Of a DNA stretch of 64,000 nucleotides, positions 2,704-55,656 are shown one piece after another; the first letter of the stretch is position 1; every line of letters begins with the position of its first letter. The notes under the pieces are model-generated. The model did not search any database, was not told where the DNA came from, and saw only the letters and a program-made list of their open reading frames with translations. The DNA comes from Vermamoeba vermiformis (taxonomy: Eukaryota), in the NCBI GenBank assembly GCA_045837725.1, contig JBEWZL010000282.1, positions 1 to 64,000 of the forward strand. Reading direction: 5' to 3'. A program made the position numbers and the translations under genes.

Positions 2704-5700
2704 TTATTTCTTCTTTTTGAAATTAAATTCAATTTGCAACAGGTATTTCAGCTTGACTTGAGCTGTGTCATATACAATGAACTCATTGTACAACAATTCA
2801 CTCTTTTTCACTGCCTCTGACTTCACACATTTACCAAATGGCACCACAACATCACCATCAATTGTCTTTGTGTGTGCATCATCTGGGATTGTTGTTCCTA
2901 CACCTTTGGTACTATCATAGCCTGTTAAAACACATCAATATGGAAATCATTCACCCCCCAAGTTAACTTACCCTTTGGTGGTTTGTCCATGTACTTAGCT
3001 TTCTTTAATTCATACATTTCACCCAAGGCCACTTCTGCAAGCAGCATCAATGCCACAGGGCTGTCTTTGTTTGCGTGACAGTAATTGGCACTCTTTGAAA
3101 CCAAATCAGCGAAGTAGAGGCCTTTGCCAAACATATAGCCTGTAACTGGAGCTTCAGGCGGTGCAATACGAAGACCCTTGATGTATGTGTTACTACCGTA
3201 ATTGGTGGATTTGATTGCGACATACCTGCGAGAGAATGCCAACAAAGTTGGTTAATCTGCTGCCGTGCCACAGCAGCATTTTGTTTTTCAATTTTTCGTA
3301 CTTCTTGTAGTTCGTTGCTTCATTGGCACGATCAACTTTAAACACCTCTTTCACTTTCAGCGTATAATCTGTATGCGTTGGTGCGTGCGTATTCTTCACA
3401 TATTCTACGATCTAGTAATTTTAGGTTAAATTTAACGTCACGCTATTGAGTAGGACTCTCTATTACCATTTGGAACTCATCCGAGTCATGATCAAGCGGC
3501 TCCATGGCGCAATTAAGCTTCTTGTAGTGACTCTCTAGCGGGTCATCAGTATCGTCGTCCGCTGAGCGCAACAACGTAGTGGCAATTTCCATCTCCAGCA
3601 ACGAGTAGATCAAATCGACTTTCTCTTGCAGCTGCTCTTGGCTGTCAATAATAGTGGGATTGTCCATGCCAAACGAATGCGGGATCAGTGTGTAAAATCT
3701 GTTCGTAGCATCTGTACGTGGTTAGTACCTTCACAAAATCAAGGCAAGTCACTTACCGACAAACTTGGCTTTCGGTGCGTTGCCTTGCTTAATTAACTCT
3801 TGAATCTCGGTAAGCACCTTGTAACCTTCCATCAAATGGCTTTTGCTCAATTTGCCAAGCGGCATCTGTATTGTGTTAAGCTATCAAATCACTTCACTTA
3901 AACTCTACGCACCTGTTGCACGTCAATCTCCATTTCTAGGAGTGCACGCTTCATGGCTCTGCAAAGTGATTTAATATAGCGCCGCATTAAATCAAAGTCA
4001 CGTACTTGGTATCGAACATCAGCTCGATGAGCGAGGCTAATCGCTGATCTAACTGCGACTTTAGACTTGTCGAATTCTTTTTCTTTGATCTCTTCATCTT
4101 CTTTTTTCATTCCAAAATCGAGTTCGATGGGATAAAACTTTCCTGGCTGCTTGACGAAGTTCTTTCTATTACTCCATTCGTTTAAAGTCTTCTCGTAGTA
4201 CAACTTTTCGAAGTTCTTTTTAGCCGCTGCCTTTGTTGCAAACTGCTCTAGCTTGTTGCCGCCAATAGTCGTGCCTACTCTGCCCCACTTACGGAACACG
4301 TACCACTTGTTGCCATTGTCTTCTTCTAGCAGCTGCAGAGCATAATACGAGTTTGTACCCTTCATAATGTCTGCGCGCATGGTAATTACTAAATACCGCC
4401 GAAAAATTGAAGCTTACCAGTCAAATTCAACATAACGTTGAAAATATCTGACTTTTCTTCCAACACGTGACAGTCTTCGTCGCGACCCGAGTCAGGATCT
4501 ACAGCGGAATTGCCCTTGATTTTTAACTTCTTCTTTGTCGGGTCGCCTAAGAGACATCAGTGATGATGCGCAAATGTACGCGTAGCATTGCATTACATAC
4601 CTTCGCCCTCATCTCCTTCGCCAGCCTCCCATTTCTTTTGCAAACTTCCTTTACTCGAAGCACCGCGTTTGAGCTTCGGTTTCTCCGCTGGCTTGTCTTC
4701 TTCGACCACTAATTTAATCGGCTCGCTAGGTATCCACTGTCGCGGCTTGCCAAAAAAGGTGTATTTCTAATTCGAAATGAGTACACGCCGCTAAGCTTTG
4801 ATCGTTGCTACCTTTTGATCACAAGCCTTGCCTTCTTTAATGGAGTCATAAATGTATTGTTCTTTGTACATCGGAATATTTAACTGCACGGCGGCTTTGA
4901 ACTTGGCGGGTTTGGTTTGCTCGAACAAAATTTTCATGTCAGCAATGACGTGCGATACGTGGCGTTCTAACATAAGGGTGAGCACCGTTTGAATGGAAAA
5001 AATTGAGCTATTGCTTACCAATCGTCGTGCTGTATTGTCCTCCGTATTTGCGAATTAGATTTTTAACTTCTTCTCGAGGTCTAACAAAGAGCAATGTTAG
5101 CTACGAGACAATTCGAAATACAAGTCACGTACTTAGAGAGTTTGCCAACAATAGCGAACACTTGGTCTTCAAATATTCGATCGAGCGGCTTTTCTTCGTA
5201 TTTAATTTCCATCTCCATTTCTGACTCCTGAGTTTGATTGTTATTGTTGTTATTGTTGCTGACATTAGACGTTGATTTGTTGAAGTTCTTATCGAAGTCA
5301 TCGGGCAATTTCGGAATTATTTTTTTCAGCATTTTACGCTAATCTTTACGTTAGTACACGATAGCACAACACTCATTTCATTATAACGAACGTACTTGTT
5401 TAAATTTGAATTTTGCAAGCCATTTGTCGTCAAGCTCTTCTGGATCTGGCATCAGCCACTCAGTTCTTTTAATATCCTTCGACTTGAATAGACACCTAAG
5501 ACGGTCATTGTTACATTGATTCGATCGTGTTGCCTTTGACTTACTTGGACCAGGCCGTTGATCCCGTGCACGCATACTCCTCTCCGTCGAGGCACACCAA
5601 ATCACCGTCGCCGCACTCGGGACACTTTGGCGTCGCACCAAACAACATTCCAGCGGCACAACGATCGACCAATTTTTGAACTCCACCGTGCGTGGGTTGA

Positions 5701-13602: not shown

Positions 13603-16600
13603 ATGGTACGAAAACATCTAAAATTATATTTATTTTTATTAATTACTGCGGCTATCACGTTCTTCTTATTTGGCGAGCAATTACTCCATCCACAAGTACC
13701 GCCAGTGCAGCCCCCTCCTCTTATCAGAATACCGAACAGCGCAAGGAATTACACCCAACATCAATACACTATTCAAAGTACAGAACCGAGTCATAATATA
13801 GAAGGCATAGTGTTTGGCACCGTACTCAAATCTGCTGAAAATGCGAAAACGACTATATTTGGCTTAGCCGATAGGCTTATGGAAGGACTCAAAGTCCGTG
13901 ACTCGTCAGATAATTTAAAGCTTGCGGTATTTGACGTATTCGGAGCTTTCGAAGATCTTGATATGGACCGAGTGGAAGACGAGAAAAGAATCAAAATATT
14001 AATTTATCCAATGAAAAAATCATACGATCCATGCTTAATACTGACAAAGGATGAGGTACGCAGCAGGAATTTTTCGAAAATTTAAAAATTATTTTTAATT
14101 TTTTAAAATGCAGTGGAAGTCCTCAGGGTGGCAGAAATTACTTAATTCAAGATTAGAATCGCTATATACGGCGGATTTTATTCACGAGATTGAGAAATCA
14201 TTCGGGTAAGTTCTCTACATGTCACAAACCACTCTCATACCAACGCATATTTTCAGGGACAATGAAGGCATTTATCTCCACCTATTACACAATAGTTTAG
14301 AACTTAAAAATGAGTGGAACGTTGATTTGCCCGAGGAGACAACGACCATTGTTAACTCGGTAAGTCGAACGCTGCGTGCTGTCACGTGTCTAACCATTAT
14401 TGCAGGACAACCTCATCGCTGGATTTATGATATCGACAGCTGACTTGCATAGAATTGAAGAAGACATGCGCCAAAAAGTGTTCAGTGGTTCATCCGTCAA
14501 AGAGATTCTTCTCGAAGAGATTAGCACGCAAGTAAGAGAACACTGCCCCGCTTTATAATTATAATTAACGTATTCATTTGTAGGCCTCTAAATTGGAAAT
14601 TGCCGAAGGTGCAGTTACTGAAGACGTGTTCTCTGTGCCAATAGACAGAGATTTCCACGACTGCGAAGTTCACGCACCAATTCCGTGGCCACTACCTTCG
14701 TCAATCGAACACAATACGGCCAATATGGACACACGCGTTTTAATCCCCACTGAGCTAGTTTACCACACCGAAGACTCGGTTGTTCTTCCAGAATGGTTCC
14801 ATGATGCCATAGGAACATTGTTCCAACAAATCTTAACCGTGCAAAATATTCCGCAAATGAAGGCCGAAGATGTCGCTGCCTTACCCGAGCTGGCTTATAT
14901 CAACTTCAATATCAATGATAACAACGATGCTATTCCGTACGGTGACAACGAGGAGTACATTATCTCAATGGATACTAAAACTCACTCGATCAATATAACC
15001 GCACCGTCCGCGTTTGGTGCTCTTAGAGCAATGCAATCGCTTGCTCAGCTCGTGCGCCAAGGACGCGGATTTAACTACATTCCAAACTTCCCCATCACGA
15101 TCAAAGACAGGCCCAAGTTTCCTCACCGTGGCCTGTTGTTGGATACTGCGCGCGAGTACTACAAAGTTTCAACGATCAAAAGCATTGTGAAGTTCTTGGG
15201 AGCTAACAAAATGAACGTCCTACATTGGCATATCACCGATGACCACGCGTTCTCCATTGAGTGCAAGAAGTATCCTGGACTTGCGAAAGGTAGCAAATTC
15301 GGAGGACCTTTTTACACGCAAGAAGAAGTCAAAGAGATTGTTGATTTAGCTACACGACACGGCGTTCGAATCATAGCGGAGATTGGTGGCCCCGCGCATG
15401 CAGGTATGGCAACAGGACTTTTGTCGTGACGCGCAATGCTCATTTTTCACACAGGCTCTTGGATTAACGACCACCACCCCGATATGATCGCCAACTGTCC
15501 TAAATTCAGTTGTCAGAAAGCATGGGGTGTCACGATGAATCCAACACTCGATAAGACTTATGGCATGTTGCAAGATTTTTTTAATGAAATGGCTGCTTTG
15601 TTCCCCGATCCTTACATGCACTTTGGTGGCGACGAAGTAAGTTAAAATGAATTGACGACGAGAAGATTTAACTCGACTGCGCTAGGCAACTCCCGAGTGC
15701 TGGTCACAAGATGCGAATGTTGTTTCGTGGATGAGCGCCCACGGCATGCAAACTAACTACGACAAGCTCATGCAACACTTTGAAACAAAATTCCATGATA
15801 TTGCTTCTTCGATCAAGCGTATTGGCATGCGATGGGAAGAAGTACGTATCATTAAATCTTTGCAATCTTCCTCACCTACGTTGTAGGTTTGGTCTCGCCC
15901 TGGCATCAAGCTAGACTGGCCCATCGTAGTTGCATGGATATCAAAGCCATCAGAAAGTTGGATGAACCCTCTCATTCACAATTACAACGTGTCCTTCTTG
16001 AGCTACAACGGCTGGTATCTGAATCACAATGCAGGTAATGCCTTGCAGTGTATAACAACATGTATAGTACTAACATCTCATGACTAAGGTGGCGTTGGAT
16101 GCCAGTCGTGGAGCGAATGTTACAGCACGCAGATCTTCGATCTCGAACCCAATTCCAAACTTTGGAACCGAGTGTTAGGAGGTAAACATAGCGCTTCATC
16201 TATAAGACAGGGTCCTTAGTATATTCTTAGGCTGTGCCTCTGCATGGGAGATGAGCGACGAGCACTTTACTGGAAGAGATCTGTGGTTGCGCACGGCTAC
16301 TCTTTCCGAGGTCAGTTTGTTTTCTCGTTAACCCAACAGGCCGTAGCTAATAGATATAACAGCCACTATGGACTGCCGAAAGTGTAGTTGCTGAAAATAG
16401 ACAGTCGAAAGACCAAAAAGTGCTACCAAGACTTTTGTAAGAGCGCAGATTCGGGACCCATGTAACATAGTACTAATGCTCCTTTTGCAGAGAAATGTGC
16501 CGCTACTTGATGTCAACGCAGTTCTCAAGCGAAGTATATAAGACTCGCCACCCTTGCTGGCATTTGAGTCAAGATTACCTGGGCTCCAAGAGGACGATCG

Positions 16601-16770
16601 ACCAACAACTATTGAAAGAATATTCTATTAGAGAGGCCGAACGTGATGACTTGATTTGCACACGCGTTAAGAATCATTTCAATCCCCCGAACAAGCAGAC
16701 TTTAACCTGCAAGACAAAGAACTGCATTCGCGAGAACATCGGCACGACACACCACGAAACTCCAGGATGA
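13603..16770 (+). CDS. GH20 beta-N-acetylhexosaminidase, type II membrane-anchored, with long N-terminal extension
   Basis: N-terminal TM helix (LYLFLLITAAITFFLF), then DRPKFPHRGLLLDTAR, NVLHWHITDD, catalytic HFGGDE and VLGGCASAWE. Confidence 0.9.
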
Positions 16771-17173
16771 GGCTGGGTAATTGGATAGTCCGTGCGCAAT
16801 TGTAAATTTGTACATAGAAATACTCTGTATTGGTTGATAGCTGAATGTCTCTGTTAAAACTTCAGACAGATTGAATGCAATCGACCTTTTCACCTGATAA
16901 AACTTCCACAACGACCAAATTATTTGACGTGAGTAATATTATTCATCACACAACGGTAATTTGTATTATCCACAGTTGTTTTTAAATCCGCGGGACAATC
17001 TGCAACGGTCACGGTTGTGAATTTTCCAACTCGCAGTCTACCTCTAATAAATACTTGATAGCGACGTAAGCAAGATATCATAATAGTAGGTGTGGTTCCC
17101 ACGACGAGGTGGAATAAAAATTGAAAAACAAAAACGGCAAAATTGAATTTGTTACGGTCTCGTCACCACCACA

Positions 17174-20100
17174 ATGGCCGAGCGAAAAGAATCCTCACGA
17201 AAGCTAGAAGTTGAGGTTAAAGATGATACTAAGCTAAAACAAAAAGATAAAGAGAAGGAAAAATCACGAGGAAAAACTGCAGACGATCTCGAGATCAAAA
17301 ATAAATCGGACGATAAAAGCTCAAGCGAAAAGCGTGCAGCATTAAAAAGGAGTCACAGTAAATCTGGAAGTTTAACTACAAGAGCAATCACACGAAAAGA
17401 GAGTTCTCATCTCGCATTATCTCCAACTGACAAGCGGTCTGGCAGCCCTACTGTTTCACTGGAATTGGCAAAATCGGACGATTCTGCGTTAAAATCCCAC
17501 AGAGAACAATCAACTCCGCCCACCTCTATTAATCTCTCCAAGTCAGAAGAAAAGCCCAATCCAATGGAATCTTCTCTGGGAGCTACGAAGGAAACGCCCA
17601 AGGACGGTGCTTCCATCAGCGAGGAAGGTGAGCCGACTCCAGAACAAGCAAATGATATCGAATATTGGAAGAAGCGTTGTGGAAACCTGGAGCAGGAAGT
17701 GGTACGGATGAGTGTGCAACGAACGATAAATTATTAAATAGGGCATTTAATAATTCTAATATTCTTAGGAAAAATTAAGATATGCAAATAAGTCATTAGA
17801 AGAACAAGTTAGACAACAGAGGCTGCTTATTGTAAGTTTTACACGGTACCGCCCTACAACGGAAACTCACCGCATCTGCTTGAAAATAGGAAAAATTCCT
17901 TCCCAATTCACCAGCGGGTGCTTCACATCCAAAGACAATTCAAAGAACAAACTCAAGTAAGTTTTAGCTGATTTGGATGCGCTCTATTTTTGGTCACCTA
18001 TTTTTTTTACCTCTACGAGTAATCTTGTTGAAATGAAGTCTATCGTCTCGTATAATTTATTATTCTTTACTCAATTCGGTGGCGTTAATTGCAAAATAAT
18101 TAAACGCATTCCGCGGGCTGATCACCAACGGAAATATTGGTTATCAGGCTATTATCGGCGTAGGCTTGTAACCCAAATTCATTTTTTAATTTAGCGACCG
18201 CAATTAAATTTTTAATTTTTTATCTCGCGGCTGGGATCACCGAATTTTTCTCGCTGCTCTCGTATTTAATATAATTAATGCATTCATTCATTACGATCAT
18301 TTATACATTTTTATACTCCAAAGTTACCGTTACAAACAATTGACGCGAGTTTTCTTTGTGTTCCCGTTCGTATTTTAATTTCCCTACTACCACAGGCGGA
18401 GATGCTAAAGAAGAGGTTGAAAAGCGTACAAAAGAAAAGAAAGAAGAGGAGCTCGTGCCCAAGTTGCAATTGGAGACTTTCAAGCGCACGCACAAGCCGG
18501 CTATTCTTTCCAAAAAAGGTGATTAAACGCCACTGTGCTTTACGTTATTTTTTTGAATTATTTAATGCATTATCTAATTATTGCTTGTACCAGACCCTGA
18601 TGACCGTACACGTGTCGTTGCTGAGATGTTGACTACAGAACAGAGCTATTTGCACGGCATTGAAATTATGCTCAACAATTACTTGTATCCTCTTCGCAAA
18701 GCAGCGCAAAAAGACAAAGACAACACCAAGAAAGACGCACACAAGAAGGTTGAGGGCTCAGACGTTGACTCAATTTTCTTGAATATTGAACAATTGCACT
18801 TAATCAACTCCAACATGTACGAGCAATTGTTGAAGCGCTTGGATGACTGGGAGACCAATGACACTATTGGTGACTTGTTGGCTGAATGGGTAAGTGCGCG
18901 AATGATCGATGGAGCTCGTTGCTAACGTGAGTATTCAGGCTCCTAAATTGAAGCCTTATTGCCGTTACGGAGGTAACTACGAAGCAGCTATTCAGCGCGT
19001 GCAAGAGTTGAAGGAGAAGAACGTCCAGTTCGCTAAGATTCTGGATGCATGCGACCAACAATCAAATGCTTTCAACGGTCTCTCTTTGCGCGATTACATG
19101 ATTATGCCCGTGCAACGTGTTCCTCGTTACAGCTTGTTGTTCCACGTAAGTCATTAGATGCATTAGTGCTGCTACAGAACTAACGTGAAACTCGTTCAGG
19201 ATCTGTTGAAGAAGACTGACAAGGCGCATCGCGACTATGAAAAGCTCACAGTTGCTTGCCTTGAAATTGAAAAGACAGCTAACGCCGTCAACGAGCAAAT
19301 TCGCCAGTTCCAAAACGAGACTAAATTGGCTGAAATTTACAACAGAGGCGGTAACTTCATGGTACGGAAACTTCGTTTATTGCCCCGAGCGAATCTAATC
19401 CTATTGTGCAGATCTTGAAAGATTCGTATCGCCGATTCGTTCGCGATTGGAATATGGAGATCGTTATGGACATGAACGATAAGAAGTTTGGCAAGAAAGA
19501 AGGAGAGTTGATTTTATTCAACGACTTGTTCGTCTCGTCGAATTTCATTATGAGAAAGGCTACGTTGGCTGAAGCTGCCCAAGTTGTACCATTGATGTGG
19601 CTCGAAGTTGATATTGCTAAGCGACAGAAGTGGATGGAGCAATTAAACGGTAAGCAAGTGCTCTTATTAACTCTATATCAATCGCACGTACCACATTTGT
19701 TTATGATGGAGAAAAAACGCTGATCATAATGAACGACACCACATAATCGCCAGTCCAGTCTGATCAAACAAATCCTTCTTTTTCTTCGCGCTACTTCTTT
19801 ACTTCACAAGGAAGTTACTAATACTTTTATCTTTGCCAGCTGAATCTTTGTCCGCCGAGAACGCCGTGATTTTGTACGGCCCTGAACGTGCTTGGTATAT
19901 CAAAGCCAAGAACATGAAGGAGCGCAATGAATTTGTCGAGTACATGGCTAAAGTTGTCGGTATTGCTGATATGGGCGACAAGGCTGCTATGCGCGAAGGT
20001 ACTCGCAAGGGTGCTTTCACCTTCACAATGCCCAAGGGTCACTATGATGGCGAATGGATGGCAGGGCAAATGCACGGAAGAGGCAAATATGTCCGTGATG

Positions 20101-22491
20101 ATGGCGCTGTTTTCGACGGCTACTGGGACGCACGCATCATGGCAGGATTTGGTGTTGTTTCCTTGCCCGATCAAGAGCCATTCACTTCTGGCTGGCTCAA
20201 CAACCGCACGACTGAAGGCGGCAATGTTGAAGTTGCTTCGAAAGAACACGACTTCTGGAGCGCGGGAGTAAGTACAGAATATAAATGATTAGCACGCGGA
20301 GGTAATTAACGATAAATTTAAGGGTCTCACCGACTCTGACTGGCAAGTTTTGTTGCTCGGTGCTCAAGAAGTCACGATGAAGAAGGACGAAAAGATCATC
20401 GAACAAGGTATCACAAACGAGAACTTGTACAAAGTCAAGAGTGGTACTATCCGAGTCGAAAAACAATTGCCCGACGGCAGTAAGAAGCTGTTGGTCAAAT
20501 TGGGTGCCAACGAGACGTTCGGTGACACTTCGGTCCTTCAATCTCTTGCCACGGCAACGGCTAGCGTCATCGCAGATTCAGATCAAGTTGTGTTGCGTGT
20601 CATCCAAATTGATCTCGTCTTCGAGATTTTCAAGAACAACCCTGGCTTGTGCATGCGATTCTACAGACAGATGGCCACAAAGCTCGCTGAACGCTTGCGT
20701 AACTTGCACAACAAGGCTCCTTTGCCCAAGAAAGACGACCTCAAGGCTGAGTCTAGCGATGGTCCTGGTAGCAGCGGTCCCGGCAGTACAGCTTCGAGTG
20801 GCGAACACACTCCGACCCTCACTGAGCGTTTGTCCACTCGCAACTTGAAGCGCATCTCAATGCACTCTGCAGACTTGGACTCCAACTCAGGCACTTCAAC
20901 GCCACGAGAAAGCACTCCTGCTACTGAGCGTAAGAAGGACAAAGACAAGAAGGACAAAGATAAGGAAAAGGACAAGAAGAAGCAGGTTGCCGAAGTTAGC
21001 TTCCATGAGAAGTTTGACTTGCCCTTGACCGAGGTCGTTATCAAAGAAGTCCGTTGTGAAATCAAGATGTCGACGTCGAAGAAGCCCGGTCAAATGTACA
21101 TTTCTCAGCGATACGTCTGCTTCGACTCCAGTCTCTTTGGCTCTCACACCAAGGAAGTCGTGCAGCTTAGCAAGGTCACTGACATCACAATGAAGAAGAA
21201 GGACTTGAAGTTGAAGATGAAAAAGAATCAAGTAAGTAATTTGCTCATCTAAGTTATCCTTTTGAATCGTTTTGGTCCAAATATGATGAACTCCAAACGA
21301 ATTTCATGCGTGTCAGATGATATCCGTGATTTTAAAACCTATCTGAGGGATCCAAATTCATCTTTTTGTTGTCGAAGATGCCACGAACCAATACTAACGT
21401 TTATATAGTACACGTTCATTTTCAATGCTAGCTTAGAAGAAGTTCACAGCTTAATTGTCAGTTTGTGGGAGAAGGCTAAGCAAGAAGCAGGCGAGAGAAG
21501 TGATGGTACTGCTTCTGGTCCTGCCTCCACCGAAGTTTCCTCGCGCAAACTTGAATCTAAGCCAAGTCGACGTATTTCTCTTAATCCACAGACTGCCAAG
21601 GCAAGCTTGGAGCCCAAGGCTACCGAAGAGGATTGGCGCTTAGTGCTCCAAGGTGCGAAGGATCTTCACTTCCAAAAGGATCAAGTGATCTTGAAGGAAG
21701 GTGTCGAGCACCAGTGTGTTTATCAGATCGTTCACGGCAACTGTCGCATCGAAAAGGAGACCCCTGAAGGCGTCAAGAAGGTTCTCGGAAGCATGGAACA
21801 AGGTCAATTGTTCGGTGAAATGTCGTTCTTACAGGGCGGTGGTGCTACAGTCTCTGTCGTGGCTGATGAAGAAGTTACCGTATACGTGATTGAAGGTGAC
21901 TACATCAACGCGCTCTTTGGTCGTCACCCTGATTTGGCTGGTCGCTTCTATCACTTCTTGTCGTCAGTTTTGGCCAACCGCTTGAACAAGCGTGAAAGTG
22001 ATTTGGCTAAGGTAACTAACTCCACGCTCCTACCATCGGCGACCGATGACTAACGATACTTGTCTCAGGCTGAGGAGAAGGCCAAGTCGCGTCGTGCCAA
22101 GTCAAAGCGTATCTCGACTGCAAGCACTGACCTCAGCGCCGATCGCAAGGGACTCGGTGAAAGTGCAGACGAGCTCGCTAAATCGAGTGAAGAAGGCTCT
22201 CATACTGAGAAGAAGCGACGAAAGAAGAAAGACCGCGAGAGTGGCGATGATTGGAGCAAGCTCGAGAATCAAATCAACACCAAGCACGACGAAGTGGAAT
22301 CAGAATTTGCTCGTGCTAACAGCAACTTGAAGGATATTCCAGAAGAACAAGAGAAGAAAAAGAAGACTACTGAGGGAGAGTCCGGTCCTTCCTCCGACAA
22401 CCCAAAGAAGATTCGCAAGACAAAGTCAACGCGCGATACCAAAAAGGACGCTGTGAATCCGACCATTGTTGTTGAAGAAGAGAAAAAATAG
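17174..22491 (+). CDS. RhoGEF (DH-PH) with MORN repeats and a cNMP-binding/GRAM/cNMP-binding module
   Basis: DH: VVAEMLTTEQSYL, IFLNIEQL, IMPVQRVPRYSLL. PH: LILFNDLFV. MORN: YDGEWMAGQMHGRGKY. cNMP: LYKVKSGTIRVE...ETFGD and VYQIVHGNCRIE...LFGEMSFL. GRAM: FHEKFDLP...GQMYISQRYVCF. Confidence 0.9.
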
Positions 22492-22665
22492 GCTAAATAG
22501 GAGTATTAATTTGCTCACTTGTAATAATACCTTTTCAATGTTTGTATGTTAAATAAAATTAAACAGGAAACAAAATCAAGCCGACCAAATTTGGAAATCA
22601 ACGTCGTTCCCGCGCTTTCAATTGAAAAAGGCCGGTTCGTTTTTTCCACCGTTATTTCTAACAAT

Positions 22666-25029
22666 ATGAAGCCTATAAAATACACGTACGCATCTCCAAA
22701 GCGAAAGAGGTCAGAGCTGCTTCCAACAATAAGCGCAATAAGTGTGGAGCCAATCCGCACTTCTACTACTAATAAACCTGAAATCACGGCCAGAAAGGGA
22801 CTAAAAAGGAGTTTATCTGTAAGTTATGCCGATTGTAAATTAAAACCTGGCTGACTGGCAGTTACAGGCAGATTCGGATGTCGTAGAACGCTTGTTAAAG
22901 AAGCGAAAACAGGAGTTTGATACCGTGGATCAAGTTAGTTTAGTAGAGGAGAAGAGGCACTTTGAATTAGAATACGCTAAAGTCGATCTAGTAGAAGAAA
23001 ATCGTGGACCATTCTGGAACGACTTGCCGCTTGAGCTGTTTTCCAAAGTTGCCGAGTTATTAACGCACAGCGAAATTGTTTCGTTGGCTACAGCGTGTAA
23101 GTTGATTATTTGGTGTTGCAATCTTCGATCTAATTGAGTTGCTTGGGCAGGTAGGAGCTCATCTCAATTACTTCAAATGGAAGAGCTATGGAGACGATTT
23201 TATTTTGAGTATAATTGGAAATTAGATGATCATATTAAAGAACAGAAGGAATTAAAGAAAAACGGTCCGCCAGAGCAAGATTCAGATCAAGCCAACTTCT
23301 GGCGCAGCAAGTATAAACAAACGCACGTCAAAGAGTGGATGAAAGAACGAACAAAAACACCCGTTAGAACGTATTCGAAACGATTTCAAATAATTTCACC
23401 AACAAAACCGCGAACTTTATCAAGATCACTTTCCGATCTGCACAACAATAGAAAATGGAGGATTTTAGCGATCAACGTGAATACAAAAGGACAGTTAGGC
23501 CGAGCAGATTGACAAAGTTGTGCTTGAAATGCATCAAAAAGCACCCTGAAGCTGTCAAAAATAAGATCTTCGCGCATCCGCTGAATAATAAAATTCTAGA
23601 ATTTTTGTTTACTACGCGGGAGATCATTACGGTTGAAGACATCAAAGGAATACTGTTTTCCATCGAGAAATTAAATTTTACAGAGTATGTAGTGAAAGTC
23701 TTATTAATTTCTCAATGTTCACAGTATAAATTAATCCTTCGAACGTTTTGCAATGCAACTATTAACTCAATATTACATAGATCAATATTTGAGCCATTAG
23801 AAGTCCTTGAAGAGTTATCGAAGAGATCTTCGTTCATTAAGAAACTTCATTTGGGCGGTGTGCCGTACGATGATGGCAATCTTAATGTCAGTGCTGCTAA
23901 TTAATCGGATATTAAGTTTTTAACGTACCTTTTAAGGCCCTTGCTGAGGTAGTTGAAAAGTTTCAAACCGAAGAACTCCAAGTGACAGTTCAAGCCAATT
24001 CTGCAGGCGAAAAGGTGCTGAAACGATTGAATAAAAGAATCAACAAATTGACTCTTGGTTATGGTCCGATTGAAGGTGCGTTAATTGCAGCTCCGTAAAA
24101 AAACTAATTTGAAACAGGCGATTTCATGCACAAGCTTCAATTCTACTGCCCTAATTTGGTTAAAATTGACTTTGCCAATGCCTCTATTACTGGTTTACAG
24201 TAAGTTAAACTAAAGCAGACAATAGTTTGCTTTGGCTCTAACAGTCTTTGAAAGATTACATCCGCTGTTGGACATGCCTTCAGTGGCCTCTATTAAAGCC
24301 TATTCGTGCACACTAGACGACACATTCGTCACCCAACTTTCACTGAAAAAACCGTTCTTGAAAGAACTGTTCATTTGCTGGAACGAGTGCTCTATTCGCG
24401 TGTCATCATTTATTGGCTTTAAAGGTACTAAGACGATTATAATTCAATATTATTAACTTACTGCTAGAATTGACGAGTTTGGCATTGAGTTACACACCAC
24501 TAGTCTATGATGTGGATCTGGCATTTATTTTGGAAAACAATCCAAATCTCAAGCACTTGGTACGGTGGTTATTAGTATTTTGAATCGTATTTATAATGAA
24601 CAAAAGATTTTAACCAAATGCGGCCTGAGCGAAGTGACGTGCAAAGTATTGTCAACATTGACCAAGTTAGAAGAGTTGATCATTCCCGAAACGCTTCTGT
24701 TCACCGAATATTTTAAACACTTAAGCAAATGCACCTCGATAACTAAACTAGTACGTATCACCGCAACATTCGATCATTTGACTAATCTTTGACAGAATAT
24801 CTCCGACGTGACCCTGATCAACGATGACATGTGCCACTTCATTCCATCATTGCCGCGGTTATCATCGCTCGAAATAGATTCAGTGGCCTTCTTCGAAAGT
24901 CCAGAGTGCGGTGTAGCTCCGTCGTTGAAAACAATTGTGACTCGACCAAAGTTCAAATACGACTTACCGAGCTTGCTGAAGAAATGTCCAAATTTGGAAA
25001 AAATCATTGTAGAAGAGCCTGATTTCTAA
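22666..25029 (+). CDS. F-box and leucine-rich repeat protein
   Basis: F-box WNDLPLELFSKVAELL...SLATAC...ELWRRFY followed by LxxLxL repeats ending LLKKCPNLEKI. Start codon uncertain (22546 or 22666). Confidence 0.75.
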
Positions 25030-32548: not shown

Positions 32549-34490
32549 CTAATCATCAAAAAGGGATTTGACATTAGCATTTAAATCACTAAATAATTTG
32601 GAGTGCAACTCTTGCAAGAATGGAACTATCTGCAGATTGATCACACCAGAGTAAATAATTGCTTCCCATCCATGCAACATTGACTCTTCCTTGAGCTTGG
32701 CCACATTTGTTTTGTTCTTCTCTTTTGACCATGGCAAAGAATTCTCATTTGCCAAGTACAGTATAACATAAAACAGTGATTCAAAGTCATCTCGCTCTTG
32801 GTAAGTATACTCACTTGTATCATTGAGATGTTGAGATACATTGATTGATGCAAACATCAGAGTGCCAGTGAGACCAATAATCGACTGGTCACGTTGAATA
32901 GCATAGCCCCAATCAATAAGAATAGGTTGTGTGCCATGCATGACTATATTTTTCAGTGAAATGTCAGCATGAAAAATGTTGTTCTGATGTGCATGAACTA
33001 GAGCCTCATTCACTGCTTTGGTAAATGACACTAGGTCACCAACTGCTTCTACATCACAAATAGGAGCTCCTTTAGGATAAGTTATCACAAAGGGATATCC
33101 TTCAACTGGAGTAACTCCACTGGCAAGTAAGACAGGTATTGACAGGGGCCTGATAATGATTGTTAACTCTTTTCATAAACTCAGTTTACATACAGTTTCT
33201 CACTATCCAAGCTATGATTTTGGAGGAGTTATTGCAGACATGCAAGTGAGTTAATCTCCTTCTCAATTTCACTGTTTGTTGCTTCTAGTGGACTGTACTT
33301 CATAATCACTTCAATTTTTGCATTTCTTTGCTGTTCTTTGCTGGAGTGCTTTGGGTTCTCAACAAAGGCACTTGCTACCGTGGGTTGTTTTGCCCCTCCA
33401 CTGATGATGTCATTTATCTGAAACAAACATACAGGGCTTGACCATGATGAATGATAGTGCTTTGCAGAAAAAATTCCATGCTCATTAATTTGAATGGATG
33501 ATGCTGGAATAAAGCCAAGCTTGTTTGCTTCAGTAAACATAAATTGCCACACTAATGCAGAGCCTAAAACAAATGTCAGCCAGATATTGTTATCTATGTA
33601 CTGTTACCTTCTTTCCAACCCACAGGGTATGTTTGGTAAATGTGTACAAACTGCTGGCCTGGTTTGTTGAATAAAAACTTGTGAAGAATACACATGTCGG
33701 TTGGTAATGAAAGCATAAAACTCTGTTCTTTCAGGCTGCGCTTTTCTGAGCTCCATAATGTGGGACACAGCTTTGCCTCGTGCATTATTTAGTTGTTTGT
33801 CTAACTTAATGCACATCACTCCAACAATTGCACTGGCTACAACAGCATTTGTGTACCGACTTTGTTCAACAAACACTAGGTCAGGTATGTCATTCATGCC
33901 ATAAGTTGGAGTCTTATGAGTATTGACAAAGCAAAGCAGGCTGTCCTTATGTTGAAAATGGTCGACAATAAGGGCTTGCAGATCATCTTTAATTTTGAGA
34001 GGCAGATCATTGGCAATTTGCAAACCCATAGTACCTTCACGTGAACCAGTAAAGAGGCTTCGACGTGCTTCATGATCATTGACGTGCAAAAATTTGTTAG
34101 CATTATTTGCGACTTGAGCTGAAGAGGATCTGGTCAGTTTGAGTTCTTCGACATCGGCTTTTAGTTTTGCCAGCTCTTCGTTCCAGCTAGTTCCTAGCGC
34201 AGCGTTAATTGTTGTCAAATTATTCGTGCCGTACCTGATTCACTCTGTGGGTTCTGCGGTTTTTTGATCTTGGCCCACAATTCTCGAAGCAGTGGTTTTG
34301 GAATGGAGTTATCAAAATCAGACAACAAGCAATCCAATCCGTCTTTTGATCCATACATTAGAAGGCGTTTCCCGTTCACGACTTGTGCAATCAGAATTTC
34401 CGCGCTTTTTGCAGGCCAGAACAAGACTTTGCGCGCCCAAACAGCCACCTGCTTTGGATGCCAATCGGGCTTTGGTAGGGTGTCGTTCAT
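32549..34490 (-). pseudogene. Crinkler (CR)-effector-like gene: SAM-like header, REase-like domain and FunK1-like kinase; disrupted
   Basis: Header WHPKQVAVW...ILIAQVVNGKRLL; nuclease-like IPDLVFV...VMCIK; kinase HADISLKNI, LIDWGYA, GTLMFAS, DDFESLFY. In-exon TAA at 33229-33231 and a frameshift near 33700. Confidence 0.7.
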
Positions 34491-35154
34491 TACATTATAG
34501 CGTGCCCATGCCTCCAGTTGCTCGTCAGACCAATGTTCAACTTTTTCAATAATCGCATCTGCTTCAACATTAGTAAGTTAAATCACCTTAGAAATAGGGC
34601 TTAATTAAATATAAATTTCGGGTTTTCGGTTAAATAGAATTTCTCGTGAAGACGTTACTCTAATGCTAAGATCGAAGATCTAATTTAATTCGTTTGATCC
34701 AGTGCAATCAGGCGTCATAATTAATTTCGGCAGCACTGACCATTAGGTCAATTAATTAAAAATCAAGTACCGTTTTCCTCCATGATCTGTTTATAAAATA
34801 AGAAATTAAAATTACAAGACTTCTGGCTTAATACGACGTTTGAAAGAATATTGCTTACCTCGAACAATGGCAAATAATAATATTTAGGCATTTGCCCGTG
34901 CGAAGAATCTGCAATTTTCGCTCAGGATAAAAAATCTCGGGAGTGAGCTCGCAGGATCCAACGGGATCTTAAACTTGTCCCATTTGAAACGGAATAGTCT
35001 GGTGTCATTTGATAGTATCTATCCAATCGTTTGATATGACCAGTTTGTTCACCTCCGTTCCGAGGTAATTTCTATGTGAAATCAAATTTGTTATTTTTTA
35101 TTCGTTTAAGCAAGCAGAGACGAGACGACTTGAATTTTTATTAATTTAAAAAGC

Positions 35155-38100
35155 ATGACGTCGAAGCCTCAGCTTAATATCCGCGCTAAGGCCTTATATA
35201 AATTCGTTCCAGAAAACGAGGAAGAGCTAGATTTAAATGAAGGCGATATAGTTGTTATTTATGAAAAGCATGAGGACGGTTGGTGCGTGGGTAATTTTGA
35301 TGGCAAAGTTGGCTATTTTCCAGCAGCGTATGTAGAAGAATTGCCACCTCCTCAACCGAGGCCAGTGAAAGCAGCTCCATCCACTCCAAAGCTCACAGAA
35401 GCACCTCCTTTGGAAATTAAGCAGGTCTCAACACCTGAAACCGCATCACCAGTCACAACACCGCATTCAGCGCGTCCAGCATCTAAGTCCACAGATGATT
35501 CAGGAATAAATACCAGACCGACAGGTTCTCCGCGACAGTTGCCGAATCCCGGTCATGGCACTATGCGCAAAGGTAATTATAATGATCCTTTATTAACTTG
35601 TAATTATTTAAATTGGTCTACTGGACAGGTTGATCAAAAATTAATTTGAAATTTAAATTTGAATAATAATTGACATAATTGCGCTATGCATCATTTTAAC
35701 TAGTGCGCTTGCAACCAATTGAAGCTTTAATAATCAAATTTTGCGCACGTGAAACGAAGATTTTTTTGGAGCACAAGCAGATCCGCCCATCTGACCTTTT
35801 CAAATTGAATCAAGGAACGAGCAAATTATTTACGTCGCGCTAATTATCTTCATTTGTCTATTTTAGTAATTTTGATCAATTTATCTACCCGTTAATTCCA
35901 ACGTAAACCTTTACAAGGTCCAATTTACTCTTTATTCATAATTTATGTATCCCCATATTAACTATGTATTGTTATTATGTTAATGCAGCATTGGGTAATC
36001 ATCAAAAAACAGCTTCGCTATCGTCGTTTGAAATGAGATCTGGTCCGCTCTCAGCGCCTGCCACGCCACAGTTGGACCGTGTGCCTGAAGGTTTGGTCGC
36101 GGAAAAAAGTAGCTCTGCCTCAAACTCGCCGGCCTTGCCGCCACGAATCACAAAAGAATTGCCCAAGCCTCCACCAAAGCCGCAACGACCGTTGTCAGGA
36201 GGCAAGACATCCGGTGAGAGCACTCCGCCACCGATACCTCCCAAGCGCGAACAAGGCTCCGTCTCACCCACTCAATCATTGTCGAGCTCATCGAGTACCA
36301 CTCCTGCTGCGAGTCCTCTGCAGAGACGCATGTCACGTGACTCGGATTCGTTGACAAGAAGCAACAGCGCTTCAATCAGTGCGCCGAGAATTGTGTTGCC
36401 GCCATCGCCTAAAACAATCACTCCCGAGCAAGGTAAGCAATATGATAGGATTAATATGACGCTACTAGCAATGGATAGTTTTTTAGATCTGGATCTGACA
36501 AAATCTTTTTTTTGTAGAGACGAAACGAGGCTATATCGCTAAAGAAACATATACTACGGAAGTTACTTATATAGAATGCATGGAAACAGCATTAACGGTA
36601 ATATATGAAATTTTAATTAGATTTTTGTTCCGTTGATAGCTAATTTTGGTTCGATCCAGAAATATTACAAGCCGTTGATAGAAAAATCTAAAAACGATCC
36701 CGCGATTAATGTTGATCATTTACGAAATATTTTCTCGTCATTAGAAAATATTATGCCGTTAAACAAGAAACTTTTGCAACGTAAGCGCGATCCAGATCTG
36801 GCACGAGAAAAACTCGAATACTAATCATTTAAATGTAGAGATTGAAGAACGTGTTAAAAACTGGTCTAATACCCAACTTATTGGAGACGTTTTCGTGTTA
36901 TTTGTAAGTATTGTCATCGATCAAAATGAAAGATTTTTTGGCAGGCGAGAAAAATCTAATTTAATTATTTTTTAATTATTTAGGCGCCATTCTTAAAATT
37001 GTACACTACTTATTCAAAAAATTATGAATCGGCTATTCAATCACTGGAAGCGATTCAAGAAGAAGAATGGTTCATTAAACAGTGCGAGAACAAGTTGTTC
37101 GTTGAAAAATTGATTATTACACCTATTCAACGTATTCCGCGGTACAGTTTATTACTAGAAGTAAGTAATATACTTAATTAAAGGTAGATGATGTTAATAT
37201 TAACCTTGTTTTCAGGATCTGTTGAAAAATACGGCCGAAGATCATCCTGATAGTCAAAATATCAGATCTGCTTTGATGACAGTCGTAAGTTACTAGTTAA
37301 TCAAGAAATGAACGTAACAATTATAATATTAACAAATTTATATTATAGAAAGAAGTAGCCGAGCATGTAAATAGCAGCATTAAATTTCACAAAAACGTCA
37401 CAAAATTGCACGACGCAGGTCTCGGTGTAAGTATAGTAATAGGGCTGCCCTAATAATATATTCCATTGACTAATGTCACGTGATTTTTCCTATTATAGCA
37501 CTTGTTGGCACCTCACAGACAAATGGTGCGTGACGCGACATTGAACGTGACAGTGCTCGGTGAGATTGTGAACGGCGTGATTTCCAGCAAAAAATCGAGC
37601 AAGCCGAAAGTGATCAAAGCGCATTTCATTTTGTTCAGCGATGTTTTGACTATTGTCGATGAACCTCTTGCTGAGCGTGCCCAATCAAAAGTAAGCAAGA
37701 AAAAATACCGAAATTTCCGAATTGATTTCTAATTGGTGTTACTAAATATAGGATAAAAAGAAAGGCACTTCTATAGCGAGCAAATTGACTGGCAAGAAAA
37801 AGACGCATTTTGGTGACATTTCGTGGCCTCTTTACCTTATTTGGGTAAAAGATTTATGTACGTACCGCAGGCCTCGATCTCTTTTTTCCACTTCAACCTT
37901 CCTAATTTGGAAATTATCTAGCGAAAACTGGCCTCGAAGTCATTGGTCCCAACACGTCATTTTTGCTGCAATTCGACAACGCCGACGAAAAATCAGAGTG
38001 GCAAGCTGACTTCCAGACATCGATTGAAGCCATCTTGAACGCGAGCGAGACTAACAACGGTACGAATATACTATAGGACTCACTTACTACATATGCCTAA

Positions 38101-43080: not shown

Positions 43081-46000
43081 ATGAGTAAACGGCACGCAGA
43101 TTATGAAGTTGATCATAGAGATAGCAAGAAGCCTCGGATTGACCAAGTAAGCATCATAATTAAGCTTCAAAATTGCATTTGCTAATTCAGGCAATTATTT
43201 AGAACGAAGATGTAACAATGTCGCTTGCCTTGAATATGGCAATCGAAGGTATTTATTGGTTTCAGATAATTTTCGTAATTTTTAAAAATACCAGGTTGTG
43301 ATTAAACTTTTTCTGTTTCAGATCCGCTCCATTTTGACATTGAGAGTCTTCCGTTAGATATCCTCGGCAACCTAATATTCAGATGTTTTCCGTTTGAGTA
43401 TTGGCTCCAAAATTTCGTTTCTGTAAACAAACGTTGGTACCAAGCCGCGATCCAATCCAGCGCCGAAAAGCAATTGATTATAAATGGAAACAACGAAAAG
43501 CAGATATTCAAGTGCTATTCAATAGCATCTCGGTTCAAAATTACGGCAGTTACAGTGACGAACGAAGCCCTGTCCGTCGGCCGTTTAGCCGCGTTACTGA
43601 ATTCCTCACCAAGACTTCACACGTACGCACAATTCCGCGGAAGTGACAGTGATTCTATCAACATAACATTTCCGTTCATGAAAACGGTATACGGGCACAG
43701 CTCTTGGCTCAAAAGATTTCCAAACGCGACGCGAGTTCAATTAATTGACAGTTTCTTCGACTTTCATTCGCAGTTCCCAAGCGTAGAAGAACTAGCCATT
43801 AACGAAACTGACGACATTAAGCAACTATTAACGACTTTCCCGTCGCTAAAAGTATTGCACATCGCTGAAATTTCCAAAGAGCAACTAGACGTGATACCTT
43901 CGACCATTCAAGTTTGTCTCACGCCGTCAACAGATGACAACAGAAATTGGTGGAAATATTATTCGTACGATCAAGTATGGGGAAATGATTACCTCAGAAC
44001 GCCGTTAGAGTACCTAATGACTATACACCAAGATGATAGCAAAATTGAAGAAACTGCAAAGCGAACCTCAGTAGAATACGAACGCAACATAAAACGCCGC
44101 TGCTACGAGTATAAATTTCCGCTAGTTTCTTTAGATCCAACTACAAGTTCTTTACTTTGTTCTTCAGATGTGCTGAAGCATGCTTGGTTCGACCTTTACA
44201 GCGCACCAGATGACCCAAAAAAACTACGACTTTACGCCACTTACATGCCGCCAATGGATGCTCTACGAATGCTAATGAAGAAAAATCAACAGCAACTCGT
44301 TGATGAATTTCTAAATACACATTCAAACGAACTGTTCGAAGAAATGACTCCAGATCTGTTCTCCGAATTAGTCTTATCTTGCGATGCAACAAAGTTGAGT
44401 CAAGCATTCACACGAGAACAACTGGCGGAGATCATGAAGCGTAAAGACAGTAACGGAACATTGGCAATATACTTAGTTTTCGAAAACAAAAGTCCAACAG
44501 TTCTATTGCAGGCCATCAAGAACTTTGGAGAGTTGCCGAGTGACTGGCCAGTAGATGGTACAGTGTTTGATATCGCCGCGGACAGAAGAAGTGTGGATTG
44601 GATGAAGTTTTTAATCACGACAGGTGTCAAATTTGATATTACAAAGATATTCAAAAGGCTTAAACCGATAGAAGACCTGTCCGATCTTCAAGAAATTATA
44701 CGTTCAATCGATAAAGAGAAAGCTTACGCGGGCCAAACAAACTGGCTATTTGACTCAGATTGGTGGCAAACAGGCGCGATTAGCGCAAATCTGATCGATT
44801 TTTTTGTCAGCGAATTCAAATATGATCTTAACACAGCTAAACAAGAAGACGAAGAAAACTCGAAAAGACAATCATTTATGCTCCATTTAATGCATGCTGT
44901 AATTAAGGACGATACCTACACTGGCTTAAGTACGCTTAGTACCATCGTTAAAAAATACAACCTTGACATCAACCAACAAGATGAGGACGGCGAGACACCA
45001 ATACTTGTAGCAATAGATCGATACAGATTATCGGAGCTGAAGTGGCTTCTCGACAACGGTGCGAAGCCTTCTTCACCCAAAGGCACACAACCATTGCACG
45101 TTGTGATGTCAGTGCCAAAAAAAGGCCCCCGCAGACCCAGCTTGGAGACGCTAGAATTTGCAGATATTTTGCTTGCATATGGCGCTGACATTAATGCGTA
45201 CAGTTTTTACGACCACAACAAAAAACAAGCTACAGCGCTGATGAATGCAGCGAAAAATAATCAACCGATTGAAGTCATTGAATATCTGATTGCACGTGGT
45301 GCTAGGACTGATATGACAGGCAGTCGCGGCCAGACATTAATTCATTATGCAGTTCGTTCACAGAACCCTGATTTGATTAGATTCTTTGCCAAGTACGTTG
45401 ATATCAACAAAGTAGATGACGAGAACTGTTCTCCGCTTCACCTGGCTGGAAAGTATCAAGAAACAGAATCCTTCACAACGCTTTTGAAACTCGGTGCAGA
45501 CGTCAATCAAGTTCGACGTGGTCTCACGCAGTTAATGCGAGCGTGCTTGTGGGGCCATTATGCACTGATAGCAGAGCTGATCAAATTTAACGTGAATTAT
45601 CAAGCGGTTAATGAACAAGGTCACTCGTTTGTGCACTTTTTATTGAAACATCAACAACAAGGAAATGGAATTAGCCTCAACGAATGTACGTAGATAATCG
45701 TTATTTGTAACTGAAACGAAACGAGACTAATTCATCTACTTATAGCTAATTTGCTTGTGACGATTAAAGAGAGCGTTGCAACAATGAAAAACGAAGACAT
45801 CAAATTCATTATCGGTGAAGTGAAGAAATACCTGGAAATGGCTAAACAAGACCAGACATTATTCATGAACATCTTCCGCCTATTGCAGATCACACGTGAT
45901 TTTAGCGGAATTTCTCATCGAACACGTGGGTCTTGATATCAACACTCAGGACTTGACCGGCAATGTCTTGTTGAGCTATCCGATGGACAAAGAGGTATTA

Positions 46001-55545: not shown

Positions 55546-55656
55546 AACGCCAGATATAGCAACTACTTATTTGGCTGCTGTAAATCCAATTTCAATTCAA
55601 TTATTTGAATCAGAGTATTACCTCAACTCAATAACATCGAATCCAACACCCTCAAC

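Follow-up and report, generated by a model that had tools for sequence, protein, structure and literature searches.

The stretch analysed here, called the window below, comprises 64,000 nucleotides of the Vermamoeba vermiformis contig JBEWZL010000282.1; its coding frames are fragmented into short pieces, by which the window is recognised as eukaryotic. On its + strand, between 17174 and 22491, lies a gene in which a guanine nucleotide exchange factor (GEF) module of the RhoGEF type, a Dbl-homology (DH) domain with a PH-like domain after it, is joined through MORN repeats to the cassette known from the Dictyostelium proteins GbpC and GbpD, that is, two cyclic nucleotide-binding (cNB) domains separated by a GRAM domain. 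According to our analysis this is almost certainly one real, expressed gene of that architecture. The reading we favour, with a probability of about 0.6, is that it encodes a Dbl-type RhoGEF that would be recruited to the membrane and switched by its cassette.

Gene model and domain order

Four public RNA runs (X1, X2, X3 and X21) were aligned to positions 16600-24600. Assembled contigs of X1, X2 and X3 skip 11 GT..AG stretches and thus derive from spliced RNA; when the exons are joined, the frame stays open over all 11 joints, beginning at 17174, the first ATG that follows an in-frame stop, and ending at 22491. The parts of the gene and of its protein are listed below, where P0001, P0011 and P0159 are related proteins and pLDDT is the predicted local distance difference test of the structural models.

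17174-22491, + strand: complete coding region, 12 exons, 1348 aa (from spliced contigs and the open joined frame)
17174-17701, 17769-17831, 17890-17956, 18396-18518, 18594-18889, 18939-19145, + strand: exons 1-6
19200-19361, 19412-19649, 19840-20267, 20323-21231, 21409-22011, 22069-22491, + strand: exons 7-12, with the stop codon at 22489-22491
17702-17768, 17832-17889, 17957-18395, 18519-18593, 18890-18938, 19146-19199, + strand: introns 1-6, all GT..AG
19362-19411, 19650-19839, 20268-20322, 21232-21408, 22012-22068, + strand: introns 7-11, all GT..AG
Upstream of the coiled coil, + strand: disordered N-terminus rich in Ser, Lys and Glu, aa 1-161
17657..17898, + strand: predicted coiled coil, aa 162-200, aligned to the N-terminal part of P0159 and of P0011
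18605..19319, + strand: DH (RhoGEF) domain, aa 265-468, exons 5-7, Pfam RhoGEF
19427..19958, + strand: PH-like domain, aa 488-601, exons 8-9, from a weak Pfam PH match and the orthologue model
20004..20207, + strand: about three MORN repeats (two canonical, one degenerate), aa 617-684, Pfam MORN 1.6e-7 in exon 9
20323..20712, + strand: cNB-A, aa 705-834, Pfam cNMP_binding 4.2e-12 in exon 10
20713..21000, + strand: disordered linker rich in Ser, Lys and Asp, aa 835-930 (pLDDT <50 at P0001 residues 346-403)
21001..21477, + strand: GRAM, aa 931-1030, interrupted by intron 10 (21232-21408), Pfam 2.2e-11 in exon 10
21622..22002, + strand: cNB-B, aa 1079-1205, Pfam cNMP_binding 3.3e-18 in exon 11
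22003..22488, + strand: charged disordered C-terminal tail, aa 1206-1348, which needs the removal of intron 11 (pLDDT <50 at P0001 residues 730-843)
22492..22575, + strand: 3' untranslated region, poly(A) site near 22562-22571

The chain is joined from overlapping records, which in the 5' half are X2 record 6 (17178-19502) and X3 record 10 (19227-20964), and in the 3' half X2 record 8 (19985-21818), X1 record 4 (21168-21979) and X3 record 12 (21868-22571). X3 record 10 links the last DH exon, via PH and MORN, to beyond cNB-A through four correct GT..AG joints. Five of the 11 joints are also present in raw X21 reads (18888>18938, 19145>19200, 19360>19411, 21231>21409 and 22009>22067), with one read at 19360>19411, 23 at 21231>21409 and 19 at 22009>22067, the last of which is found in X2 and X3 contigs as well; X21 reads are transcripts of a relative (316 of the 387 aligned reads are 90-95% alike), the alignment being limited to reads with a likeness of 90% or more. 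At the 3' end, 17 X21 reads have loose ends behind 22562 that finish in an A run, and X3 contig 12 stops at 22571; none of the four runs has read depth in 22741-23274.

All introns are short, between 49 and 439 nt; GTAAGT forms the start of seven of the 11, and several carry a branch-like CTAAC or CTAAT motif 8-25 nt upstream of the AG (e.g. 18890-18938, 19146-19199, 21232-21408 and 22012-22068); these signals are similar to fungal-type splice signals, though the named relatives of the gene are amoebozoan. Several contigs break off or continue unlike at 20935-20986, and in one X1 record position 17259, in the N-terminal region rich in Lys and Glu, is joined to 20950, in the linker rich in Lys and Asp that precedes GRAM, with a single additional base at the junction. 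This joint is most likely an assembly chimera over low-complexity repeats.

From its N-terminus the protein comprises a disordered region, a coiled coil, DH-PH, about three MORN repeats, cNB-A, GRAM, cNB-B and a charged tail. Pfam was scanned on single exons, and the RhoGEF profile (cut-off 27.6 bits) is matched in three consecutive exons at profile positions 1-80, 83-148 and 150-180, with 4e-13 (50.4 bits) in exon 5, 1.1e-15 (58.7 bits) in exon 6 and 0.019 in exon 7. The conserved stretches TTEQSY and PVQRVPRYSLL are legible in the DH sequence, and we take them to be CR1 and CR3, catalytic motifs of RhoGEF. Sequence matches of the DH in the PDB are a putative Rho/Rac GEF (8zlf) and FGD6 (9jb3); designer-PPR entries, which ranked above the true RhoGEF matches for exon 6, were rejected as spurious. 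The Pfam match to PH is weak in the window protein (E 0.028 and 0.033) and goes down to 7e-6 in orthologues.

AlphaFold models were made on two stand-ins, namely the fragment P0001, which is identical to the window protein in 790 of 836 aligned residues (94%), and the full-length orthologue P0011 (37% identity). The P0001 model (mean pLDDT 77.4, predicted template modelling score, pTM, 0.74) consists of three folded blocks, the end of PH with MORN and cNB-A, the GRAM and cNB-B, with disordered linkers and tail. Its MORN part forms six beta-strands with pLDDT >90; the cNB folds also exceed pLDDT 90, and their beta-barrel is confirmed by the top Foldseek matches of the cassette, which are the tandem-CNB regulators PKG, PKA-R and the Epac2 regulatory domain (1o7f, 2byv), and CRP. 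The entire GRAM is recognised by Pfam in P0001 (1.8e-11, residues 430-530). In the P0011 model (pLDDT 82.7, pTM 0.66) a long N-terminal helix (residues 13-54 form a single one) is followed by an all-helical DH, a PH beta-sandwich with its C-terminal helix, six MORN strands and the cassette, and the window sequence aligns with P0011 across the modelled DH/PH region. Foldseek matched this DH/PH tandem to p115-RhoGEF (TMt 0.76, root-mean-square deviation 4.1 over 355 columns), and NET1, intersectin and PDZ-RhoGEF are other fold matches. A docking prediction of DH-PH (205-560) of P0159 against its MORN and cassette (561-1115) scored 0.00; made without alignments or controls, it is evidence neither way.

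The first-pass annotation of this DNA had placed the feature at 18590..22053, an extent which proves too narrow: 18590 lies inside intron 4, 22053 is a stop codon within intron 11 (22012-22068), and what it misses is 260 aa from four 5' exons and 140 aa from the final exon, the true start being 17174. The order it described, a RhoGEF and then cNB-GRAM-cNB, is reproduced in the exon-wise Pfam scan with every named domain present on the + strand, the PH weakly so, and the split into two genes which it named as a refuting outcome is not seen in the RNA, a spliced contig connecting the last DH exon to cNB-A. As to its estimate of about two MORN repeats, their presence is right and their number is not, six strands in the P0001 model making about three hairpins.

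The cassette family and its phosphate-binding cassettes

With P0001 as the query, a full HMMER search of 1.84 billion representatives returned 5471 proteins at E<=1e-3, of which 133 reached E<=1e-30; 90 of the best 150 relatives were scanned with Pfam, namely all of P0006-P0050 and, from P0052-P0112, the ones with 560 aa or more. Their head domains are RasGEF in 29 proteins (one of the Roco/GbpC type, one also with PLD), RhoGEF in 15, RGS in 10 (two also with RhoGAP), DEP only in seven, protein kinase in six, MORN only in four, RasGAP in three, RhoGAP-SH3 in two and PP2C, AHSA1, AIR9-Ig and PH in one each; 10 have cNB/GRAM and no other head. Judged from these heads, the cassette is a promiscuous plug-in, which regulators of G proteins of at least nine kinds carry (RasGEF, RhoGEF, RasGAP, RhoGAP, RGS, kinases, DEP, PP2C, PLD). 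The window cassette is homologous to that of the GbpC orthologue P0042 (Tieghemostelium lacteum KYQ94307.1, Roco architecture) with E 9.7e-52.

A word-based search with P0159 (1253 aa, a cluster-mate of P0002 with RhoGEF, MORN, two cNB and GRAM) gave 16 matches, 11 of which carry RhoGEF; the search with exon 10 alone gave three, low-complexity words having crowded the candidates. Aligned end to end, the window protein is identical to P0159 in 564 of 1219 columns and to P0011 in 364 of 985. The organisms named for the RhoGEF type are Rhizamoeba, Pyxidicula, Arcella, Vermistella and Protostelium, those for other cassette types Flabellula, Clydonella, Balamuthia (kinase type) and Tieghemostelium, and all named members are amoebozoan except Rigifila. 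The Arcella protein of the RhoGEF type stands in UniRef as 'Cyclic nucleotide-binding domain-containing protein'.

A tree was built from concatenated cNB-A and cNB-B (273 columns, IQ-TREE quick method, LG+G4) for 73 of 76 labelled proteins, three being dropped that had no two cNB matches of at least 90 aa; the outgroup P0141, with a canonical phosphate-binding cassette (PBC), received its label from the analyst without a Pfam scan. P0001 and 11 other RhoGEF-type rows form one clade (Shimodaira-Hasegawa-like approximate likelihood ratio test, SH-aLRT, 97) with Rhizamoeba, Pyxidicula and Arcella as named members, the label of the fragments P0001 and P0002 being inferred. Pfam found MORN in 10 of these 12 proteins, and in the clade alignment A2 invariant columns are most densely packed along the MORN stretch. 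The clade is not nested among the RasGEF-type cassettes, and its nearest neighbours, with weak support (85), are DEP and kinase cassettes. Four RhoGEF-type rows in which MORN was not detected (P0025, P0077, P0079 and P0101) fall outside it, which hints at separate fusions, two of them being long branches in this quick-method tree made without a topology test.

Purifying selection is evident from the comparison with the X21 transcripts: among the best-supported 37 differences (207 further ones exist), taken from reads at least 90% alike, 36 are synonymous, six of them inside the PBC of cNB-A. On these sequence data, the gene is under selective constraint and belongs to an amoebozoan family that is conserved and has the order coiled coil, DH-PH, MORN, cNB, GRAM and cNB.

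The PBC of cNB-A (PBC-A) is FGDTSVLQSLATATASVIA at 20518-20574 (FGD...ATATASV), and that of cNB-B (PBC-B) is FGEMSFLQGGGATVSVVA at 21811-21864. In the alignment of PBC-B to the CNB domains of PKG I, FGEMSFLQGGGATVSV pairs with FGELAILYNCTRTATV; Ala1153 stands at the position of the PKG Arg, and the Thr after it, presumably the one that contacts guanine in PKG, is retained. In PBC-A, Ala782 is found at the Arg position and Asp replaces the usual Glu, the Gly-Glu pair being part of FGE in cNB-B and of FGD in cNB-A. We compared 85 cNB-A and 174 cNB-B rows, the Arg column being set by the canonical control row P0141: Arg occurs at the canonical position in none of them (0/85 and 0/174), and Ala is the commonest residue there (29 and 121 rows). 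The cNB-B rows keep Glu in 164 of 174, with Thr or Ser after the Arg position in 140 and Ala next in 137; in the RhoGEF clade the Gly, the Glu, the Ala replacing Arg and the following Ser and Val of PBC-B are invariant or at least 90% conserved. The alignments thus describe a PBC that is conserved, not decayed.

The GbpC orthologue P0042 likewise has an Arg-less PBC-B, FGEITYLLSGEATAHVV, and such a PBC is presumably common to GbpD too. Since the loss of Arg is family-wide and includes the GbpC orthologue, it is by itself no argument against ligand binding, and from the sequences we would treat it as weak evidence in either direction. An Arg three residues beyond the canonical position of PBC-A (T-[ST]-A-R), as in P0042, also occurs in P0031, P0037, P0047 and P0098; this Arg might contact the phosphate from a shifted position and could tell binding from non-binding members apart.

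The first-pass annotation had noted that both PBCs lack the canonical Arg, and the alignment agrees, with Ala in both; its caution that ligand binding is unproven still stands, and the loss itself is no special trait of this protein. The architecture, which had been described as unrecognised, turns out to be shared: the RhoGEF clade has at least 12 representative proteins, there are the 11 RhoGEF-carrying matches of P0159 and the Arcella entry, and a mention of RhoGEF with cNMP-binding domains exists for Physarum (PMC4758236).

Proposed function and its alternatives

We propose that the GRAM domain, aided by PH and MORN, would bring the protein to the membrane or cortex, by analogy with GbpC, and that the two cNB domains would form an allosteric switch. 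A small ligand, most plausibly cyclic GMP (cGMP) or a related nucleotide, would bind the cNB domains and release the adjacent GEF, and the freed GEF would load a Rac/Rho-type GTPase and lead to actin remodelling. Of the two, cNB-B would more likely act as the sensor. We infer the GEF activity, the GTPase substrate, the autoinhibition, the ligand with its identity and very existence, and with them the control of Rho/Rac by a cyclic nucleotide, from analogy. Regulation of the RhoGEF by the cassette seems quite probable on that basis, and a cyclic nucleotide as the ligand is a tentative assignment, which we put somewhat short of even odds.

Several points weigh against this proposal. Neither PBC has the canonical Arg, PBC-A has Asp in the place of Glu, and where PBC-A of P0042 carries Arg three residues beyond the canonical position (TTARL) the window protein has Ser, and the affinity of GbpC might depend on that very residue. 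In the tree, the RhoGEF clade does not have the GbpC orthologue as its sister; the GbpC side of our comparison is this Tieghemostelium orthologue, and the function of the RhoGEF-type members is a putative one. According to PMC8684759, no functional cGMP target besides GbpC is evident in Dictyostelium, and GbpD is therefore not known as a high-affinity cGMP binder. Finally, no RNA record among X1-X3 and X21 holds the whole gene.

It would be logical to ask whether the cNB domains are pseudo-receptors, i.e. whether, independently of nucleotides, they and GRAM make up no more than a scaffold for structure, autoinhibition or localisation, the RhoGEF being governed by membrane recruitment or partner proteins and not by cGMP or cyclic AMP. 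All three residue changes named above would fit such a role, and so would the finding that gbpC-null cells lose all high-affinity cGMP binding though GbpD has the same cassette (PMC8684759); PBC-B, however, is among the best conserved stretches both in the clade and in the 174 rows, which is unexpected for a ligandless pocket, and the Thr or Ser kept after the Arg position in 140 of those rows also speaks against it, so that we regard this explanation as unlikely. The combination of a family-wide Arg loss with a strictly conserved remainder of the PBC may mean changed specificity, the cassette sensing no cyclic nucleotide but a different ligand, such as a nucleoside or some other purine derivative. 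Fold matches to Trypanosoma 'cAMP-independent' PKA regulatory subunits with inosine or guanosine (6hyi and 6hyq, by their entry titles) point in this direction, but they rank below PKG and PKA-R and match by fold, not residue by residue, and GbpC, whose orthologue has the same type of PBC-B, is reported to be D. discoideum's sole protein that binds cGMP with high affinity, at 4 nM (PMC8684759); we consider such a ligand improbable.

That the fusion is an artefact, with neighbouring RhoGEF and cNB-GRAM-cNB genes or a mis-assembly behind it, is hardly credible. The chain does come from contigs of three runs, and the X1 record joining 17259 to 20950 tells that chimeric contigs occur at the locus; against this stand X3 record 10, which spans from the last DH exon to past cNB-A with its four correct joints, the frame open through all 11 joints, and the same collinear architecture in independent full-length proteins of other organisms.

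A wider view, which we can advance only as a doubtful possibility, is that the Arg-less cassette might be a plug-in ligand sensor of general use in Amoebozoa (and also seen in Rigifila), its ligand being cGMP bound in an Arg-independent way or an unknown purine, and that the gene of the window would couple this ligand directly to Rho/Rac and actin. Cell polarity in Dictyostelium is steered by cGMP via GbpC. If the cassette drives the RhoGEF in the way we propose, many free-living amoebae would have a one-protein route from a second messenger to Rac/Rho and to actin. The nature of the cassette ligand also bears on how an Arg-less PBC could bind cGMP tightly, as reported for GbpC, and on whether a ligand gates the dozens of GTPase regulators that bear the cassette. 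The gene family is uncharacterised but not unique, and its value is that of a testable hypothesis rather than of a surprise.

Neighbouring genes and comparison with known systems

Other features of the window are the following.

3898-4413, - strand: WGR-domain exon (1.4e-21), which suggests a PARP-type gene
14584-15900, + strand: beta-hexosaminidase gene with several exons, just upstream of the RhoGEF gene (Glyco_hydro_20 9.8e-33, Glycohydro_20b2 5.2e-12)
32549-33172, - strand: kinase-like exon, best Pfam match 'Fungal protein kinase' (3.2e-13)
35134-35649, + strand: SH3-domain exon followed by Pro/Ser-rich sequence
43306-45693 and 47998-50376, + strand: two intron-free paralogous open reading frames (795 and 792 aa), 2.3 kb apart, whose N-terminal regions are similar, with ankyrin repeats at the C-terminus (Ank_2 3e-27 and 1.3e-29)
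55609-57567, + strand: intron-free HSP70 open reading frame, 652 aa stop to stop (HSP70 at 55660-57564)

The pair with ankyrin repeats looks like a tandem duplication. Identity of the HSP70 to named cytosolic HSP70s reaches only about 66-67%, for Physarum, dictyostelids, animals and plants alike, against 91-92% to metagenome proteins; it appears to be a divergent paralogue and helps little to place the organism, whose amoebozoan assignment comes from the named relatives of the RhoGEF gene and from the Balamuthia relative of the kinase type.

Among characterised proteins, GbpC and GbpD are described as GEFs in which GRAM stands between two cNB domains (PMC6320773, PMC11988041). Pfam found no RasGEF or RasGEF_N in any exon of the window protein, and since its head is DH-PH, it is not an orthologue of either; the cassette is the same and the head is different. 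The closest characterised GEF-plus-cassette protein is GbpD (RasGEFU), in which a GEF is likewise followed by a C-terminal cNB-GRAM-cNB (PMC11988041, PMC1273635), and the window cassette has sequence homologues among cassette proteins of the RasGEF type; unlike the window protein with its DH-PH and MORN, GbpD has a CDC25-type RasGEF head acting on Rap1 and no MORN. GbpC is the one family member with reported cGMP binding, which is reported to activate the GEF, and with reported GRAM-dependent association with the membrane or cortex (PMC6320773). The window protein has the cassette and the Arg-less PBC-B in common with the GbpC orthologue, and differs in lacking the Arg three residues beyond the canonical position of cNB-A and in carrying DH-PH-MORN where GbpC has LRR-Roc-COR-kinase-RasGEF ahead of the cassette.

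cNMP-binding domains are listed among the RGS architectures (PMC3971589). For RhoGEF together with cNMP-binding in an amoebozoan, the only mention in print that we found in the literature searched, mostly without subscription papers, is one sentence in the Physarum genome paper of 2015 (PMC4758236). In the same literature we found no functional study of RhoGEF-plus-cassette proteins and no direct cGMP-to-RhoGEF link of this kind.

MORN repeats directly after DH-PH, as in the window protein, are also a feature of alsin (ALS2), which consists of an N-terminal RCC1-like domain (RLD), DH/PH, eight MORN repeats and a C-terminal VPS9 and has no cNB or GRAM (PMC8773251). Weak, sub-threshold PH_alsin matches are present in the relatives P0008 and P0063, and no exon of the window protein matches RCC1 or VPS9 in Pfam.

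The working analogy for the proposed switch is offered by Epac1 and Epac2, cAMP-regulated RapGEFs in which the cNB autoinhibits the GEF and the ligand releases it, and the Epac2 regulatory domain (1o7f, 2byv) is, as said, among the fold matches of the cassette. The PBC of Epac has the canonical Arg. Unlike in the window protein, the cNB domains of Epac are N-terminal, DEP stands in the place of GRAM and the GEF is of the CDC25 type. Epac and the Dictyostelium proteins have been argued to be convergent (PMC1273635).

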